From NCBI RefSeq assembly GCF_030013595.1, contig NZ_CP122768.1: a stretch of 64,000 bases of DNA; one strand, 5' to 3'. The notes beneath the pieces were generated by a model that was given only the letters and a program-made list of their open reading frames with translations, was not told the origin of the DNA and ran no database searches. The position numbers were made by a program, and so were the translations under genes. This DNA is from Escherichia coli. Its GTDB lineage: Bacteria; Pseudomonadota; Gammaproteobacteria; Enterobacterales; Enterobacteriaceae. Below are positions 1-7,092 of this stretch, one piece after another; position 1 is the stretch's first letter, and every line of letters begins with the position of its first letter.

Positions 1-1
1 A

Positions 2-232
2 GCGGCGGCAAAGTGGCAGCAGCTACAACGCGGAGCCGCAGCGTTCTCCATCACATTGGCACGTGGACGCGCAGAACTCTACCCCGAAATGCATGGCACG
101 GTAACAGGCTTTAAAAGCGAGATTGATAATCAGGACTGGATTATTGCGAAAGCCGAGCACACCATTGATAACAGCGGCTTTACCACGCAGCTTGAGCTTG
201 AGGCAAAAATCCCGGAATGGATAGCAGAATGA
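2..232 (+). CDS. Phage tail protein D (P2 gpD / late control D family), C-terminal 76 codons; 5' end lies outside the window
   Basis: Frame 2 is open from the window edge to TGA at 230-232. The translation ...KWQQLQRGAAAFSITLARGRAELYPEMHGTVTGFKSEIDNQDWIIAKAEHTIDNSGFTTQLELEAKIPEWIAE resembles the gpD C-terminus as I remember it. ogr lies downstream on the same strand, as in P2. Confidence 0.75.
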   Translation, partial: AAAKWQQLQRGAAAFSITLARGRAELYPEMHGTVTGFKSEIDNQDWIIAKAEHTIDNSGFTTQLELEAKIPEWIAE

Positions 233-396
233 GACTCTTAAATGTATTAGTCCAGACACGTACTAGCGGGCTAAACGGCACAGTCTTATCTGACCATCTG
301 CCCCTGACACAGAGCAGACGGTCCTTGATCTTACCCACTAATAATGGACGCGCGACTAATATAATTTATTGCTTTTTATTTATACCTCACTGAGAT

Positions 397-1032
397 TTAG
401 CGAGCTAATATATTCAAAGAATTTAACAATTGAGTGTCGAGTGTTTCAGTTGCAGGAATCGGTAATCCATTCGCAATGCGGTAATTTTTCACAGACAGCC
501 TTGTGGATGGCCCCATTATGCCGTCAATATTTCCGTTATAAAATCCCCTGTCCAGCAATGCGAACTGAACTCGCATAATCAATCGCTTACGTTTCTCTGC
601 ATCAGAAGCAAGCCCATTACTCGTACGGTTAACCTCTGAAGTTCCAACAGAACTCGTGTTAGTGGTTCTATTATTATCGTTAGAACGAAGTGCACGCACC
701 GAGGAAGAGGACGATGAGGAACTTGCACCTGAACTTGAAGAACCAGATGAACTTGGTGAGCTGTATGTTTTTGGATAATAGGGGGTACTTCCACCATAGT
801 ATCCACCACCTGATGAGGATCTATGAGAGCTATGGCTCCTATGAGAACTATGGCTTCGATGCCCTGCGATATAAAATGGGACTTCCGTGTTAAGTGGAGC
901 TATCACTAAATCATGCTCATTAAGAGTCATACCAGGTAAATCACTCGCTCCTGTAGATGAATCGCTTGCCCATACAGAATTGTTGAGAGCCAAAAATCCC
1001 GGAAGTAGAGCAGCAAAATTAAACTTTTTCAT
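397..1032 (-). CDS. hxsA: HxsA-like His-Xaa-Ser repeat protein: signal peptide, 5 HxS repeats, Ser/Gly/Tyr-rich linker, C-terminal peptidoglycan-binding domain (211 aa)
   Basis: Start ATG at 1032 overlaps the hxsC stop (ATGA). N-terminus MKKFNFAALLPGFLALNNSVWA-SD looks like a Sec signal peptide. HRSHSSHRSHSSHRS is encoded at 817-861. The C-terminal LIMRVQFALLDRGFYNGNIDGIMGPSTRLSVKNYRIANGLP looks like PG_binding_1. Confidence 0.75.
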   Translation of the reverse strand: MKKFNFAALLPGFLALNNSVWASDSSTGASDLPGMTLNEHDLVIAPLNTEVPFYIAGHRSHSSHRSHSSHRSSSGGGYYGGSTPYYPKTYSSPSSSGSSSSGASSSSSSSSVRALRSNDNNRTTNTSSVGTSEVNRTSNGLASDAEKRKRLIMRVQFALLDRGFYNGNIDGIMGPSTRLSVKNYRIANGLPIPATETLDTQLLNSLNILAR

Positions 1033-2141
1033 AAAATTGGTCTCGGTGATTGATGAAAACGGCCTTTTGAGGAACTGAAATAGCCAGCACAGGAAGGCTT
1101 CTGAGTACATTCATCACATTCTTTTGGATAGTAATTTTTCCAATCAGAGATCGACTGAACAGCAAGCTCCCTAGCCCTTTCAGGAAGATAACACAAAGGA
1201 TAATTAAAAATTGTCAGAGGTATGCCTGACCTGTATGCAGCGTCTATGGCAGAGATTATTTTCTCACTATAACTACTGTGATCAATGAAGATGGTGGACC
1301 AGTTTTTTCGTGCCCAACCGATAGGCTCCAACCCCATAAGGGAAATCTGATTGATGTTGGAGAACACACGGCCAGCGAATTCTACGATATCATCCAATTC
1401 GGTATAGTTAGCCAGTGTAGGAATAACTCTAAGTTCGATATTAATCCCCAAGTTTCCTGCATTGATTAACCCTTTAACCGTTTCATTAAATGCGCCATCA
1501 CTCCCTACCAGATGATCATGCACAAGTGGTCTTGATGAGTAGAGCGGGATACCAAAGGTGATTTTGATCTTTTTGCTTCGCTTTGCCATTTCCTGTGTAA
1601 AGTTGGTATCAGCAAATTTGCGTCCGTTTGTTAAAACATGTAAAGCAGTATCTGGTGAATTCTCGATGATAAAATCAATGAAGTGAAGGAAGTCATCCCC
1701 ATATAGCAAAGGTTCACCACCGCTGACCCCAACAACTCCGTTCAAGCCAAATGAAGCTATAGCAAGAGCTGATTGGGTAAGTAGCCAGTCATCATTTATT
1801 TTCTTTGGTGGCTGCGAACAAAACAGACACAAGTTATTGCAGCGTTCCGTAACTAAGACAGTATTATGATTGGCTTTGCGTGACAGAATAACGCGTATCA
1901 TATTGCCATTGTTGATTATCCCAATATCTCCATCTTCAATTGACTCAAATAATTCAGTGCTAATAACAGAGAAATCAAAGCATGGTGGAATGGCATCATT
2001 ATTGCCTTCAGCAACTACTAGCAAATTGGGCAAAAAGAATAAAGGGTTCACTGGTTTTTGTTTGCATAACCGATAGAACCCCGTGGGCACGTTCTCTGTA
2101 GAAGCAAAATGAAAGATATCGTTCCTGATAACCTCAGACAT
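1029..2141 (-). CDS. hxsC: HxsC-like radical SAM maturase (370 aa)
   Basis: CX3CX2C motif CNNLCLFC. Second radical-SAM enzyme in a four-gene hxs-type operon. Overlaps hxsB by 8 nt and hxsA by 4 nt. Confidence 0.8.
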   Translation of the reverse strand: MSEVIRNDIFHFASTENVPTGFYRLCKQKPVNPLFFLPNLLVVAEGNNDAIPPCFDFSVISTELFESIEDGDIGIINNGNMIRVILSRKANHNTVLVTERCNNLCLFCSQPPKKINDDWLLTQSALAIASFGLNGVVGVSGGEPLLYGDDFLHFIDFIIENSPDTALHVLTNGRKFADTNFTQEMAKRSKKIKITFGIPLYSSRPLVHDHLVGSDGAFNETVKGLINAGNLGINIELRVIPTLANYTELDDIVEFAGRVFSNINQISLMGLEPIGWARKNWSTIFIDHSSYSEKIISAIDAAYRSGIPLTIFNYPLCYLPERARELAVQSISDWKNYYPKECDECTQKPSCAGYFSSSKGRFHQSPRPIL

Positions 2142-3522
2142 ATGCCCATCCTTTTAGCATCTCAGCCTTCGAACCACCCTCTGAGATGCAGTTCATCAGA
2201 TACCTGAACATCCCCTTGTGATATTGACAAAACGTTGAACGACTCCTATCACCGACAGGCTCACCCTGTACACTTATGTTCTGGCATGGATCTGAACCAC
2301 AAAATGGTTGATATGCACATGTATCACAACCTGGCAGAGCAAAATTGAACGATGAACTCAATACTGCGTTATAGTAAGGACTATCAGAAAATGATAGCGT
2401 CTTAACTTCACCCGCACTGAACTCCGTTTCAGGATTCACCTTCTGCAACATACGGCTCTCATCGCTACCATATACTCGACCGTCATAATTGAAAAGAATA
2501 CTGTTAAGCACGACTCCACTTGGAGACTTTAAATCCGCATAACCACTAAAACCGGGATTGAAGATCCTTTTCAGATGAATGGAGGCCGAATGTTCCACAA
2601 CCCTTATCCCTTCATTATTAATCTTAAGGATTTCATCTATCAACGAGGCATAGAAGCTGAAGTATTCGTCCATAGAAAAGGTGAAAGAAGCTTTTTGTGC
2701 AAACCCATAGGGACTAACAGGTCGGATAAACATGTCCTTGAGACCAAGAGACAAGTGAGCCTGAACAATCGATTCAGGACGTCTGATAAGCTCTTTAGTA
2801 ACTGTAGTAACCGTTGCAACGCGGCCAGCACCTAAAGAGTGTTTGATAGCCTCTACCCCTGACACTGTTCTACTGTACGCAAGCCCACGACCAAGAATTC
2901 GATTACTGTTGTGAACAACTTCCTCACCATCAAGCGACACAGAGAACGTTATGTTCCGGTCTCTCGACCATTCAATCATATCCTCATTCAAGACAGACAG
3001 ACTTGATGCCACCACCATCTCAAAATTGGTTCTTCCCAGCGTTTCAGCACATTGATCATAGATGCTCTGAATTAAATCAAACCGCAAGAGAGGCTCCCCA
3101 CCCTGTATCTCTATTTTGTAAGGTGGCGTTGATAGTTTTTTAATAGCCGAAATAATATCGGGGATGAGCTCAGGATTTAGGTCGTAACCTGAGGCATTAA
3201 CAGAAGCTCTACTAACCTGGCAATACTTGCATGTATGGTCACAACGTAATGTGGGTACAATCATGAAAATTGGCCTGACAGCCAGTTCATTCATCAATCG
3301 TTTTGCAAAAGCAGAACTTAAAGCATAGGGAGTTATAGCAGATGAGCTTTCACTGGTTATGAAAAGCTTACTTTCTAGCACGTTTGATTGCTCCGAACTA
3401 ATTCGCTCATCAGAAAGATCAATAAGGTCTTGCTCACCAATGAAATGATGAAAACCTGCAAGGTTGCTTATAAACACCTGTCCATTAGGCAATCTGTCAA
3501 AATTAAATGGCATCAATTCCAT
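2134..3522 (-). CDS. hxsB: HxsB-like radical SAM / SPASM-domain maturase (462 aa)
   Basis: CX3CX2C motif CDHTCKYC. C-terminal Cys cluster PGCDTCAYQPFCGSDPCQN...FCQYH is typical of SPASM/twitch auxiliary-cluster domains. Its start overlaps the hxsD stop (TAATG). Confidence 0.8.
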   Translation of the reverse strand: MELMPFNFDRLPNGQVFISNLAGFHHFIGEQDLIDLSDERISSEQSNVLESKLFITSESSSAITPYALSSAFAKRLMNELAVRPIFMIVPTLRCDHTCKYCQVSRASVNASGYDLNPELIPDIISAIKKLSTPPYKIEIQGGEPLLRFDLIQSIYDQCAETLGRTNFEMVVASSLSVLNEDMIEWSRDRNITFSVSLDGEEVVHNSNRILGRGLAYSRTVSGVEAIKHSLGAGRVATVTTVTKELIRRPESIVQAHLSLGLKDMFIRPVSPYGFAQKASFTFSMDEYFSFYASLIDEILKINNEGIRVVEHSASIHLKRIFNPGFSGYADLKSPSGVVLNSILFNYDGRVYGSDESRMLQKVNPETEFSAGEVKTLSFSDSPYYNAVLSSSFNFALPGCDTCAYQPFCGSDPCQNISVQGEPVGDRSRSTFCQYHKGMFRYLMNCISEGGSKAEMLKGWAYV

Positions 3523-3836
3523 TATGAAAGCCTCTCATCAACACTGCGAAGCACTTTATGGACAATAGAGTCTCTCAACGCCCCTGTTTTATGCTGTAGC
3601 TTTTCTCGCAAAGAGTAATCATTAAGCAGCCTATCGAATTCATAAAGGAATTTGGGATTATCGTTTTCAAAAGAGATTATCCAGTGGGAAACGTCTTCAT
3701 GGAGTTTCCATCGAGTAAGCGGAGTCATCCAATATAGACTATTGCGTATAACCCATTCAGAATATAGTTCTTTCTCAAACACTCTTTCGCTCATTGCAAT
3801 TATCTTCCAATACAAATATTCATGATCAGCAACCAC
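3522..3836 (-). CDS. hxsD: HxsD-like protein (LLNDYxLRE family), 104 aa from GTG 3836 (alternative ATG at 3794)
   Basis: Contains FDRLLNDYSLREKL, which matches the LLNDYxLRE signature that names the HxsD family (TIGRFAMs, from memory). First gene of the operon. AGGAAAAA lies 11 nt upstream of the GTG. Confidence 0.75.
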   Translation of the reverse strand: MVADHEYLYWKIIAMSERVFEKELYSEWVIRNSLYWMTPLTRWKLHEDVSHWIISFENDNPKFLYEFDRLLNDYSLREKLQHKTGALRDSIVHKVLRSVDERLS

Positions 3837-3866
3837 TTTAAAGCGGATTTTTCCTATGGCAACAAT

Positions 3867-3892
3867 AATATAACATATCCATAGATATGTTA
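3867..3892 (-). promoter_or_regulatory. Candidate hxs promoter (-10 TATATT at 3867-3872) with a 9+9 bp perfect palindrome TAACATATC-cata-GATATGTTA (3871-3892) in the spacer
   Basis: Read directly from the hxsD-ogr intergenic region. The palindrome position is operator-like. The -35 element is weak. Confidence 0.35.
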
Positions 3893-4046
3893 CAGATGCC
3901 TTGTTTCCCGTTGACTAATACATCACAACGTTAGTAATGGCTATCACAATTGTGAACTTCCACTTTTCACACAAGACAAGCTGTTAATTGGAATCTGTAT
4001 CAGTACAACTTAGAATATCGGAAGCACCACAGTAAGGGAGGTCGCT

Positions 4047-4307
4047 ATGTTCCGTTGTCCGCTTTGTGGCGCATCCGCCCGAATCCGCACCAGTCGTCCG
4101 GAAAATGATTCAAACACCGTGCGGCAAAAGTATTACCAATGTAACAACCTAGAATGCGGCGTATGCTTCTCAACACTGGAAGCTTTCCATAAATTCACAT
4201 CAAAACACGCCTCCGGCGCTCACTCTTCAGAAGGTATCCCGTGGCATGAACTGCCAGCTTCACACAAAGGAAACAATCAGATGAGTTTGCCCTTACCTCA
4301 AAATTAA
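4047..4307 (+). CDS. ogr: Ogr/Delta-family zinc-finger late transcription activator (86 aa)
   Basis: MFRCPLCGASARIRTSR...YYQCNNLECG gives the CX2C-N22-CX4C Ogr zinc motif. Strong RBS AAGGGAGG. Lies downstream of gpD as in P2. Confidence 0.8.
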   Translation: MFRCPLCGASARIRTSRPENDSNTVRQKYYQCNNLECGVCFSTLEAFHKFTSKHASGAHSSEGIPWHELPASHKGNNQMSLPLPQN

Positions 4308-4497
4308 CAGGCAGAATTGCCGGAGTAACAAAAAAGAGATAGATTACGCGCGGGTGCCTTTCGGCTGATGGTCGGAGGGAATACCCGAAGGCCAGATGTG
4401 GAAAGGCCCCGGAAAACATTTCTGTTTAACCGAGGCCCTAACCGCATTACCTTGACAAGTGAAAGGTTAGCGCCTCTCCGGAAAAGGAGCAAGTGCT

Positions 4498-4638
4498 ATG
4501 TCGCAAAAATCGCTTACGGCCATCATGTTCTGCGTGACGGCAATCCTCATCATCTGGATGTTGCACGGTTCGCTGTGCGAAATACGGATGAGATTCTGGG
4601 GAGCGGAGTTTGCGGCGTTCTTACAGTGTAAGCAGTAA
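4498..4638 (+). CDS. hok: Hok/Gef-family type I toxin (46 aa)
   Basis: MSQKSLTAIMFCVTAILIIWMLHGSLCEIRMRFWGAEFAAFLQCKQ has one TM helix plus the Hok-family SLCEIR motif. AAGGAG RBS. Too short for the ORF track. The overlapping 87-aa frame 4368-4631 is positioned like mok. A GACGGGGGA-gcaa-TCCCCCGTC hairpin follows at about 4650-4671. Confidence 0.75.
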   Translation: MSQKSLTAIMFCVTAILIIWMLHGSLCEIRMRFWGAEFAAFLQCKQ

Positions 4639-4726
4639 GGAAACCGCGACGGGGGAGCAATCCCCCGTCAATCGGTTGCCAGGGTAAGGTCGATAAGGCA
4701 CCCTATCTCACAGACATGAACAACAA

Positions 4727-4759
4727 ACCCGCAACGTAAAAACTGCGGGTTTTCTTTTT
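4727..4759 (+). terminator. Rho-independent terminator closing the ogr/hok side
   Basis: Stem ACCCGCA/TGCGGGT followed by TTTTCTTTTT. Confidence 0.6.
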
Positions 4760-4901
4760 GGTGTCCTTACTGACTTGAAACGGTGATCAGACTATAAGAC
4801 AAAGCCCACAATGTAGCGGGCTTACTCCCCTCTCCCTCCACTGAATGTGGACACATGGTGGAACGAAGATATATAAAACATTATAAATCAATCGGTTACT
4901 G

Positions 4902-4928
4902 AAAGAAAAAAGGCCGCAGAGCGGCCTT
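4902..4928 (-). terminator. Rho-independent terminator downstream of the 4949-5164 gene
   Basis: Stem AGGCCGC-aga-GCGGCCT followed by a T-run on the minus strand (A-run 4904-4910 on plus). Confidence 0.7.
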
Positions 4929-4948
4929 TATGGTTTATTGACAATTGA

Positions 4949-5164
4949 TTAAGACGTGTGGCACTTATTGGCACACCAATAGCAACCATTCACCCGGGAA
5001 TATCCTTTGGCCTTTGCCTCTGTTACCGCCGAAGAACAATCACTATAGTAACCAAGGTAATCGCGGTTAGCTACAGCAGGAAGATATGAACATTCCTCAG
5101 CATGCACCTCATGATCGCCATTGCTCTGAGCATTTTTGTTCACGTAATAGTGTTTAAAAACCAT
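4949..5164 (-). CDS. Small Cys/His-rich protein of unknown function (71 aa); self-contained cargo gene (moron)
   Basis: MVFKHYYVNKNAQSNGDHEVHAEECSY...NGCYWCANKCHTS. Has its own RBS GGAG, an upstream TTGAAA-17-TGTAAT promoter-like sequence and its own terminator. Confidence 0.55.
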   Translation of the reverse strand: MVFKHYYVNKNAQSNGDHEVHAEECSYLPAVANRDYLGYYSDCSSAVTEAKAKGYSRVNGCYWCANKCHTS

Positions 5165-5287
5165 TGTATAACTCCATGTTGACGCTGATATTCAGCATTA
5201 ACATGCTATATCACCAATTACACAAACATAAGCTTGTTATTTCAATTAGTTGATAACGATCACCACTGAACTTTGGCCTTGCGAAAT

Positions 5288-5497
5288 TCAAATGTTTTTC
5301 TGACTATTATTGGGCCGATAAACAGATATTATTTGAGCGTTTTGGTTCATTACATAAGCAATATCTCCATCTTTCAGAATGACTTTCCCATCCTTTCCCG
5401 ATACGGCAATACTCCGCTGCTCAGGATGATAGCCAATGCTACGCCCGCAATGGATCTCTTCCCCACCATTTTGAGACATGACTTTTACAGTTAACAT
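5288..5497 (-). CDS. Hypothetical small protein (69 aa; start uncertain)
   Basis: ORF only; I recognise no motif. Confidence 0.3.
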   Translation of the reverse strand: MLTVKVMSQNGGEEIHCGRSIGYHPEQRSIAVSGKDGKVILKDGDIAYVMNQNAQIISVYRPNNSQKNI

Positions 5498-6266: not shown

Positions 6267-6812
6267 TTAAACCACCACGCGCTCTTTCATCCAGCCATAG
6301 ACAAACGACTCATTGGCCTCGCGTTTCTCTGCCAGCTCCAGATAACGCTCGCCCTGCGTACAGTTCAGGGCTTTCACCAGTACCAGTTCACCATCCCTGC
6401 TGCGATTTTTCAGATATGCCCGTAATGCATTAAGAGTACGCGGCCCGATGCGTCCATCAGCATCCATATCCGGATAGAGTTTCCCGCGCAGGTTGAAAAC
6501 GTTCAGCCAGCGCTGAAGCATTCTGGACGCCACAGTTGGCCCCATGTTCACGCCCGTATCGCACAACTCTGCGGCAATATCCGGAGACAGGTCCTCAACC
6601 TGGTCGAATCGTGGTCCGTACCAGTAGTCCGCCTCGAGTATTTCCAGCGCCTGCCCACGCGTCAGGTCACGCATATCGCCCTGATAACCGTGTGCACGGG
6701 CAACTTTTTCAGTGATGCCCCATTTAGTCGGACCACCTTTATCATCCGGGTGATTGACGTAACCGCCCTCTTTTCCCAGAATTTCGTCAAAAATTTCATC
6801 TTTCGACTTCAT
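6267..6812 (-). CDS. Endolysin, glycoside hydrolase family 108 N-terminal domain plus PG_binding_3-like C-terminal domain (181 aa)
   Basis: MKSKDEIFDEILGKEGGYVNHPDDKGGPTKWGIT is the GH108 signature as I remember it. Follows two holin-like genes. Confidence 0.8.
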   Translation of the reverse strand: MKSKDEIFDEILGKEGGYVNHPDDKGGPTKWGITEKVARAHGYQGDMRDLTRGQALEILEADYWYGPRFDQVEDLSPDIAAELCDTGVNMGPTVASRMLQRWLNVFNLRGKLYPDMDADGRIGPRTLNALRAYLKNRSRDGELVLVKALNCTQGERYLELAEKREANESFVYGWMKERVVV

Positions 6813-6813
6813 A

Positions 6814-7092
6814 TCAGCGCCTTCGTAATACAAGGATTTTTGATACGTTCCCGCGTGCTCGTATCACCAGCACGCAGAACACCAGGTTAATCAGGACGAC
6901 CAGCCAGTTACCGGGAGGAAAGCGACCACACAGATAACAAAGCGGCGCAAAGGCATAAAGCAGCATCAGCAGCCAGGCCAGCCACGACATCAGCGGTTTA
7001 TGTCTCGACTCACCACGACGATAAAAAAAGAGCGTCAGCACGATAACCGTGCTTAACACCACATTCAGTAATCCGGGAAGGTTACTTAACAT
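6814..7092 (-). CDS. Holin-like small membrane protein (92 aa)
   Basis: Three hydrophobic segments and a basic C-terminus (KILVLRRR). Lies in the lysis cassette immediately upstream of the endolysin. Confidence 0.6.
   Translation of the reverse strand: MLSNLPGLLNVVLSTVIVLTLFFYRRGESRHKPLMSWLAWLLMLLYAFAPLCYLCGRFPPGNWLVVLINLVFCVLVIRARGNVSKILVLRRR

Follow-up and report, generated by a model that had tools for sequence, protein, structure and literature searches.

A probable His-Xaa-Ser defence cassette at the D–ogr junction, an accessory-gene hotspot of P88-like prophages

Why should two phage genes that lie nearly side by side in P2 be held 3.8 kb apart by an operon on the opposite strand? The question is raised by a 64-kb stretch of Escherichia coli DNA (NZ_CP122768.1; hereafter the window, in whose coordinates all positions are given), where the 3′ end of tail gene D (gpD) and the late activator gene ogr enclose an antisense hxs operon at 233–4046. 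An initial annotation of the sequence had described D and ogr as almost adjacent in P2 and had proposed that the insert was cargo at a hotspot. The description was correct, the D stop and the ogr start of P2 being 81 nt apart, and alignment of the junction among relatives bore out the proposal by revealing empty sites, insertion boundaries and 17 alternative cargos. We consider it highly probable that the insert is a horizontally acquired His-Xaa-Ser (HXS) defence cassette lodged in a hotspot of a P88-like prophage.

An hxs operon between D and ogr

The insert carries an intact hxsD-B-C-A operon, on the minus strand between the D stop codon and the ogr ATG, and all coordinates first given for it were confirmed in the sequence. 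Its four open reading frames (ORFs) overlap or abut, and each scores above the cut-off of its NCBIfam equivalog. In order of the operon these are hxsD (3522–3794; TIGR03976, 91 bits against a cut-off of 50), for a small accessory protein of the LLNDYxLRE family; hxsB (2134–3522; TIGR03978, 559 bits against 370, a full-length match), for a radical SAM/SPASM maturase with the motif CDHTCKYC; hxsC (1029–2141; TIGR03977, 398 bits against 268), for a radical SAM maturase with the motif CNNLCLFC; and hxsA (397–1032; TIGR03979, 161 bits against 122), for the effector precursor. The starts of hxsD and hxsA are those of RefSeq, the longest hxsD ORF extending to 3836. Both HxsB and HxsC match Pfam Radical_SAM, each with a CxxxCxxC motif, and HxsA has an N-terminal signal peptide, MKKFNFAALLPGFLALNNSVWA (read by eye), five His-Xaa-Ser repeats, HRSHSSHRSHSSHRS, and a C-terminal peptidoglycan-binding domain (PG_binding_1, 22.0 bits, just below the gathering score of 23). 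As had been estimated at first from spot counts, GC is lower in the insert than beside it: it was 0.415 over 230–4046, against 0.51 in the first 300 nt and 0.50–0.53 over 4201–4800, and such a departure from flanks of about 0.51 points to a foreign origin. The spacer between hxsD and ogr is at 0.35–0.36.

Haft and Basu are said to have given, in 2011, the first bioinformatic definition of the His-Xaa-Ser system (NCBIfam TIGR03976–03979). Recently HXS was described as an anti-phage system (Li et al., Nat Commun, March 2026; PMC13128918). Its authors cloned the operon of strain MEM, which restricted 110 out of 113 coliphages and needed every one of its four genes; adsorption was unaffected, and T7 escape mutations were found in the ejectosome proteins gp15 and gp16. 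HxsA, composed of a signal peptide, five HxS repeats and a peptidoglycan-binding domain, is processed, gains a +8 Da modification requiring HxsB, HxsC and HxsD, and acts in the periplasm, where it stops phage DNA entry. The gene order D-B-C-A was reported for 99.6% of HXS systems, native expression was very low and 77% of E. coli hxs operons lay outside geNomad prophage calls, and the authors class HXS as an intrinsic bacterial defence distinct from phage-encoded exclusion (PMC13128918). Judged by its sequence, the operon in the window belongs to this system: its four genes and their order agree, both of its radical SAM enzymes have a CxxxCxxC motif, and its HxsA combines signal peptide, five HxS repeats and peptidoglycan-binding domain.

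The D–ogr junction and the distribution of hxs

The initial label of the prophage as P2-like holds at the level of the family, although P88-like is more exact. In the P88-like lineage the FI–U tail block is inverted relative to P2, with FI-FII-E-T-U on the opposite strand, while D and ogr make up a separate unit directed rightward. The gpD end (1–232, plus strand; an ORF with its TGA stop at 230–232) is 94–97% identical to the P88-like phages PhiR44_2, P88 and 500465-2, and the flanks are 92–97% identical to P88-like Peduoviridae (Xuanwuvirus/Gemsvirus: P88, PhiR44_2, 500465-2 and 520873). On the far side of the insert, ogr (4047–4307, plus strand; RefSeq annotation) encodes an 86-aa Ogr/Delta-type zinc-finger late activator (Pfam PF04606 Ogr_Delta, E = 5e-14).

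To see what other phages carry at this junction, we determined how far the ogr ATG lies from the end of D in IMG/VR loci whose Ogr is 97–100% identical to that of the window, taking the best 80 of 211 matches; 79 contained both D and ogr, and redundant isolates are possible in this sample. The junction was empty, with a 51-nt interval, in 34 of the 79 (43%), as it also is in PhiR44_2 and P88. The other 45 carried one of 17 unrelated cassettes of 1.0–3.8 kb and GC 0.33–0.43, with hxs in just two. The alternative that most relatives carry the same genes here, which the initial annotation had named as fatal to its proposal, therefore fails. Moreover, the bounding genes are conserved (D end 89–100% and ogr 91–99% DNA identity across 88 loci), and different contents sit on near-identical flanks, with 16 of 1580 positions differing (1% divergence). 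These observations support the D–ogr junction as a true accessory-gene hotspot and not conserved core.

The cargo found in place of hxs included Shedu SduA (E = 1e-208), a PifA-like KAP NTPase (2e-64), PDC-S31/DUF2971, GmrSD_N with HNH, PIN_4, PIN_12 and HEPN proteins, HetE-N beside a 930-aa protein, a PRTase pair and an alpha/beta hydrolase. Together with HXS, the Shedu, PifA-like and PDC-S31 cassettes are clear cases of defence cargo, and GmrSD_N/HNH, PIN, HEPN, HetE-N and the PRTase related to PsyrT are weaker ones. PADLOC and Pfam searches gave no match for seven of the 17 cargo types (nine of the 19 alternative-cargo proteins), which makes D–ogr an extra mining site and these types cheap candidates for new defence genes.

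Compact D–ogr gaps recur outside this lineage: the 81 nt of P2 contain an annotated promoter of their own, Wadgaonvirus and Dagavirus have 68–70 nt, and a Symbiopectobacterium relative with a 74% identical D has about 38 nt. Compact junctions in such distant relatives suggest that the empty state is ancestral, and that cargo was gained and replaced on near-identical backbones.

Among 5426 complete E. coli genomes, 1271 contained a match to the D–ogr junction, some 106 of these solely through a non-prophage copy of hxs, and hxs itself was present in 151. The window allele (≥99% identity) occurred in 45 genomes, in every one of them between D and ogr, from hosts as diverse as pig, cattle, human and bird; 39 of the 45 copies are uninterrupted and ≥99.4% identical. 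The four other hxs loci inspected lay in islands that bear an integrase or are cryptic prophages, next to ssrA or to the tRNA-Thr gene adjoining proA. Three of them, from further allele groups (L090, L091 and L092), occupy integrase- and relaxase-bearing islands at ssrA, and the fourth (L093) lies in a CP4-6-like element flanked by insertion sequences. Homology to the window spans 317–3954 in the CP4-6-like copy and about 394–3898 in the ssrA-island copies; by the former, the shared hxs module (317–3954, minus strand) comprises the operon with its own promoter region and 3′ tail. Residence in both prophages and islands indicates that mobile elements carry HXS from host to host. One prophage hotspot thus accounts for about 30% of the hxs operons of E. 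coli, which revises the picture of HXS as an intrinsic chromosomal system in favour of one that spreads on mobile elements and would act partly as a prophage-encoded superinfection barrier.

The ssrA islands (L090, L091 and L092, at 7–9 kb and 12–17 kb) have neighbours of their own. In all three allele groups a DUF6119/TIGR04141 gene lies directly downstream of hxsA, a neighbour missing from the prophage copy. Two of the three islands carry ABC-three-component systems, and two of the three have a truncated integrase gene near the hxs operon.

Boundary blocks and the movement of cassettes

Alignment of empty with filled sites, which read ...GAGTGAG-CAACTTAGA-ATAGCGG...ATG(ogr) and ...GAG-CAACTTAGA-TGTATTAGCTCAGAC...cargo...CTGTCAGTTGGAGTCTGAGCCAGTA-CAACTTAGA-ATAGCGG respectively, places a 9-bp direct repeat at both borders, with a single copy in the empty site. 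Immediately inside the repeats, a left block of about 90–95 nt and a right block of about 60–70 nt are common to all 17 unrelated cargos at roughly 70–90% identity. In the window the left block ('left pad') occupies 233–325, as delimited by the alignments of the 17 cassettes and of 22 left ends from five genomic contexts, and the right block ('right pad') occupies 3960–4014, ending in the repeat copy CAACTTAGA at 4006–4014; the same right block was found in other contexts. The left block contains a degenerate repeat copy at about 234–242 (CTTAAA at 237–242 against the consensus CAACTTAGA), the end motif TGTATTAGTCCAGAC at 243–257 and a hairpin in which 292–301 pair with 314–323, and D of the window is two codons shorter. 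Because the module shared with other islands spans 317–3954, the hxs module fills exactly the space between the two blocks.

Folded as the minus strand, the left block, towards which D and hxsA converge, gave a strong hairpin of −51 kcal/mol (z = −5.7). RNAalifold returned no consensus structure for it, and two hand-specified hairpin models paired no better than column shuffles (65% against 63%, and 78% against 78%). A selected RNA structure is consequently not claimed, covariation offering it no support. Rfam gave no match to either block, the sole match in the region being a sok RNA downstream of ogr, and no other copy of the blocks was found in the 64-kb window or at the G–U site of this prophage.

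The blocks occur well beyond D–ogr. In a lambdoid-type prophage of another enterobacterium they appear in the same order between glycosyltransferase and tail-fibre assembly genes, where the site holds two different cargos, either a GNAT protein or SMEK plus a methyltransferase, and where the flanking repeat, AATTAATG(TG), differs from that at D–ogr. They are also present at the classical Z/fun hotspot (G–FI) of P2-like prophages, and P2 itself has kept the right block upstream of the promoter of its F operon (the late FI–D tail operon). In a small sample, no cargo was shared between D–ogr and Z/fun loci. Partial copies exist in a CPS-53-like prophage and in BL21 downstream of nanQ. The BL21 copy (L147, 5001–5072) is a 72-nt partial left block, 82% identical, placed right after nanQ and adjoining a small transposase gene and a DUF1016 (yhcG-like nuclease) pseudogene; this arrangement is found in many E. 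coli genomes and gives the impression that a copy of the hotspot boundary has become fixed in the chromosome. A query for left plus right blocks found 4395 places in 2354 of the 5426 E. coli genomes, at most six per genome, many of which appear to be one conserved chromosomal locus. Both blocks lay within 225 nt, with no gene between them, in 37 genomes. In strain S88, the right end of one such unit without cargo, when reverse-complemented, is identical to the consensus left end TGTATTAGCTCAGAC. The S88 unit, of about 240 nt, belongs to a Z/fun locus (L152, 3486–3727) and is followed by a second cargo with a 194-aa tyrosine recombinase (4854–5438), the only lead on an enzyme that might move or invert cassettes at such hotspots.

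We tentatively propose, as something less likely than not, that the blocks are a previously unrecognised, or at least uncatalogued, family of boundary elements marking hotspots of unrelated prophages, which could either offer portable landing pads or be ends that are mobilised in trans. The family may mark P88 D–ogr, P2 Z/fun and lambdoid tail-fibre/gtr sites, and also a chromosomal site. Two accounts of how cassettes move bear on this proposal.

One is that turnover proceeds purely by homologous recombination, through D and ogr or through the blocks as portable homology arms, with the repeats as functionless relics, and to this we give not quite an even chance. D and ogr flanks are indeed 94–99% identical among phages with different cargo, the divergence of the blocks to about 70–90% identity is what passively inherited spacers would show, and the literature on P2/P4 hotspots, in which almost no transposable elements were found, favours this route (PMC13586616). 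Nonetheless, recombination in D and ogr leaves unexplained why the same blocks sit in unrelated backbones, in the lambdoid prophage and at P2 Z/fun, and why repeats of different sequence lie at the exact block borders of two sites; moreover, arms of 60–95 nt at 70–90% identity are, as is generally known, poor RecA substrates.

The other account makes the blocks the ends of a transposase-less cassette, akin to miniature inverted-repeat transposable elements (MITEs) or mobile insertion cassettes (MICs), which was inserted at D–ogr with a target-site duplication and is moved by an enzyme acting in trans. It would add a mechanism to the hotspot and replace nothing, and we regard it as possible but rather doubtful. 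It accommodates the same blocks around unrelated cargo at P88 D–ogr, P2-like Z/fun and the lambdoid site, as well as direct repeats that lie at the exact outer borders and are site-specific (CAACTTAGA at D–ogr and AATTAATG(TG) at the lambdoid site), with a single copy in the empty D–ogr site. The consensus ends, TGTATTAGCTCAGAC ... GTCTGAGCYAGTACA, form a terminal inverted repeat which the right end in S88 matches, a 225-nt cargo-less form exists in the 37 genomes mentioned, and the compact junctions of distant relatives fit an ancestral empty target. However, no transposase was found in or near any cassette examined, and the pairwise inverted repeat beats shuffles (p < 0.07) in only about six of the 17 D–ogr cassettes, that of the window not among them. 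There is no clean direct repeat at Z/fun, and three IMG/VR scans yielded no empty lambdoid site. Outside these sites the hxs module occurs without blocks detectable by BLAST and the SMEK module with short block matches only, and copy number is low (at most six per genome), with many matches seemingly at one fixed locus.

If our proposal of a boundary-element family is true, the blocks would constitute a physical mechanism for the movement of defence cassettes between unrelated mobile elements. The route of such exchange was called unknown in a 2026 study of P2 and P4 (PMC13586616). The shared blocks are the part of this analysis most worth following, since they offer something concrete from which to trace the exchange of defence cassettes among unrelated prophages. 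Z/fun has been studied before: from its title, a paper by Nilsson et al. (2004, Mol Biol Evol 21:1) reportedly may already describe conserved flanks and site-specific recombination there, and the papers found to cite it gave no details on those flanks.

Control region, role in the lysogen and known systems

A divergent control region between hxsD and ogr had been noted at the outset. It is present, although with the RefSeq hxsD start at 3794 it measures 252 bp and not 210. A consensus scan for sigma-70 promoters picked, for hxs, GTAACA (3893–3888) and TATTAT (3870–3865) with 17 nt between them, so that the predicted promoter occupies 3865–3893 on the minus strand; the −10 may alternatively be TGtTATATT (3875–3867), whose TATATT, present on the minus strand at 3867–3872, is the hexamer first suggested as a candidate −10. 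All five hxs alleles compared conserve the −35 and −10 positions. Facing ogr, a promoter-like site composed of TTGGAA (3988–3993), 17 nt and TAGAAT (4011–4016) lies in the right block and repeat, and of this the empty site retains just the −10.

Between the −35 and −10 of the predicted hxs promoter lies a perfect 9 + 9 palindrome with a 4-nt loop, TAACATATC-CATA-GATATGTTA, exactly at the 3871–3892 where it had been reported as operator-like. A perfect 9 + 9 inverted repeat with a loop of ≤10 nt arose in 1.3% of Markov-1 random versions of the 252-nt spacer. Compared across alleles, the dyad is full only in the window; L093 (90% identical) keeps seven of eight pairs, L092 (72% identical over the module) has only TAACA-N12-TGTTA, and the ssrA-island alleles L090 and L091 have lost it. 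Its outer TAACA/TGTTA halves, present in three of five alleles, coincide with the −35 hexamer and the TG-extended −10. The palindrome is real and overlaps the predicted promoter, as claimed, but its conservation is partial and the cassette holds no regulator gene. That it serves as operator for a dimeric repressor of host or prophage, controlling hxs and possibly the divergent ogr, seems to us unlikely, despite its low local chance, its place within the best candidate hxs promoter and its retention in the closest allele across 10% divergence: two of the five alleles lack it, promoter function alone could account for the conserved outer halves, the cassette has no DNA-binding gene (HxsD being reported in HxsA maturation; PMC13128918), and it lies some 155 nt from the ogr ATG, outside the ogr-proximal block. 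A LexA-type operator was rejected by eye, CTGT-N8-ACAG not being present.

By analogy with the published system, HxsB, HxsC and HxsD would mature the HxsA precursor, and mature HxsA would be exported to the periplasm, bind peptidoglycan and block incoming phage DNA (PMC13128918). The operon would be transcribed from its own weak predicted promoter, antisense to the late genes, and its expression in the lysogen should for that reason be independent of Ogr. It could thereby act as a broad superinfection barrier benefiting both the host and the resident prophage. Because cargo interrupts co-transcription of D and ogr, the right block may supply the candidate ogr promoter, which ogr would require once that co-transcription is broken.

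Several points weigh against reading the insert as an acquired and working HXS cassette. The defence data were obtained with the strain MEM operon and not with the window allele (PMC13128918), and the window allele shares only about 72–91% DNA identity with the island alleles. PADLOC-DB 2023, which has no HXS model, gave just weak viperin-like radical-SAM matches, and promoter-like sites are not enriched in the region (12 against 9.3 ± 2.5 expected in shuffles). In addition, an insertion sequence disrupts hxsC in no fewer than two of the 45 lysogens, leaving the gene truncated in TD225-C4 and in two parts in B1S11, which suggests that HXS is dispensable or costly in some backgrounds. In all, insertion sequences (IS2, IS3-family, IS600 or ISVsa5) lie inside the equivalent of window 150–4320 in six of the 45 carriers, namely TD225-C4 (L154, 1280–2508), B1S11, 13KWH46, 7_12_30A, ETEC4068 and ETEC4075. 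These interruptions, and the second, lambdoid prophage that adjoins this one in the window, could be taken to mean that hxs is the decaying, currently functionless passenger of a defective prophage, but with four intact ORFs scoring as full-length equivalogs in the window, 39 of 45 copies uninterrupted and nearly identical across diverse hosts, and D and ogr intact, we consider this very improbable.

The same prophage adjoins ihfA in O26:H11 11368, with 99.6% identity over window 1–4700. There RefSeq annotates D (L001, 11123–12232) as a 265-aa 'VgrG/Pvc8 family' protein plus an upstream pseudogene fragment, which is an annotation artefact; a defect of D in O26:H11, suspected from this short PGAP annotation, was rejected, the full 367-codon frame being open in that near-identical locus. 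This prophage also carries a second small minus-strand cargo gene, for a serine acetyltransferase (L001, 4657–5229). Flanked by the tail-fibre assembly gene and by gpU, it occupies the position that corresponds to Z/fun, without boundary blocks. Outside the cassette, between ogr and the prophage end, lies a sok/hok-type toxin–antitoxin module (4352–4638, plus strand; Hok/Gef annotation) with a 46-aa Hok/Gef ORF; its match to Rfam sok, at 49 bits and E = 4e-9, falls short of the gathering score of 59. P88-like phages conserve this module, and those of Shiga toxin (Stx)-converting phages are about 80% identical to it. Homology to PhiR44_2 stops at about 4713 and is followed by host sequence matching the ihfA-proximal terminator at 4909–4929. 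From about 4930 the window departs from O26:H11 into the lambdoid prophage, which has a Q antiterminator, a GH108 endolysin (6267–6833), a holin and a DNA methyltransferase, so that two prophages stand effectively in tandem; the exact junction of this tandem found no match among the genomes of the collection. Two contigs with P88-like D–ogr loci at E. coli-level identity are filed as 'Vagococcus sp.' and as a 'Planococcaceae' metagenome-assembled genome (L085 and L087), and are probably contaminating or mis-binned enterobacterial DNA.

How does this locus compare with those already described? The accessory hotspots of P2 are tin/old (A–Q) and Z/fun (G–FI) (Rousset et al. 2022, PMC9122126; Odegrip 2006; Nilsson 2004; Moura de Sousa et al. 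2026, PMC13586616). Like them, D–ogr is a small locus of 1–4 kb between conserved phage genes, where low-GC cargo with many defence genes turns over rapidly and varies on near-identical backbones. It differs in position and in lineage, being P88-like where P2 proper is compact, and in being empty in 43% of loci, whereas the main hotspots of P2 are reportedly always occupied (PMC13586616). We found no explicit description of D–ogr as a hotspot in the papers searched. One published hotspot, defined only by its flanking conserved genes, may include it, since D is the last tail gene before ogr-att-int-C; that definition comes without the junction, the boundary sequences, ogr or HXS.

The cassette also resembles phage morons such as T4 Imm and Sp and P2 Tin, Old and Fun in being an autonomously transcribed low-GC insert between phage genes which, expressed from the prophage, would protect at an early step against other phages. 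Unlike Imm and Sp, which are said to be narrow, published HXS is broad-spectrum and works through a periplasmic protein matured by radical SAM enzymes. MICs and MITEs are transposase-less elements derived from insertion sequences, with terminal inverted repeats, target-site duplications and sometimes passenger genes. The block-bounded cassettes share with them conserved ends, variable passengers, a short inverted repeat in the consensus ends, site-specific flanking repeats of 8–10 bp at D–ogr and the lambdoid site, a cargo-less form of about 225 nt and an empty target with a single repeat copy, but have no identified cognate insertion sequence or transposase, show a weak or absent inverted repeat in many copies and are low in copy number and confined to hotspots. 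Integron cassettes, among them the defence cassettes of chromosomal integrons, are likewise single-function units, promoter-less or self-promoted, that are swapped at a fixed site with structured boundaries, although here each cargo has two different blocks and not one attC, and there is no integrase or attI; an attC reading was rejected, the aligned borders containing no GTTRRRY/RYYYAAC cores and the loci no intI-like gene. Thus, the hotspot is a new, precisely delimited site of a known class, and its cargo in the window is a known, recently described system which, unlike the intrinsic defence pictured by its discoverers, is here unmistakable prophage cargo.

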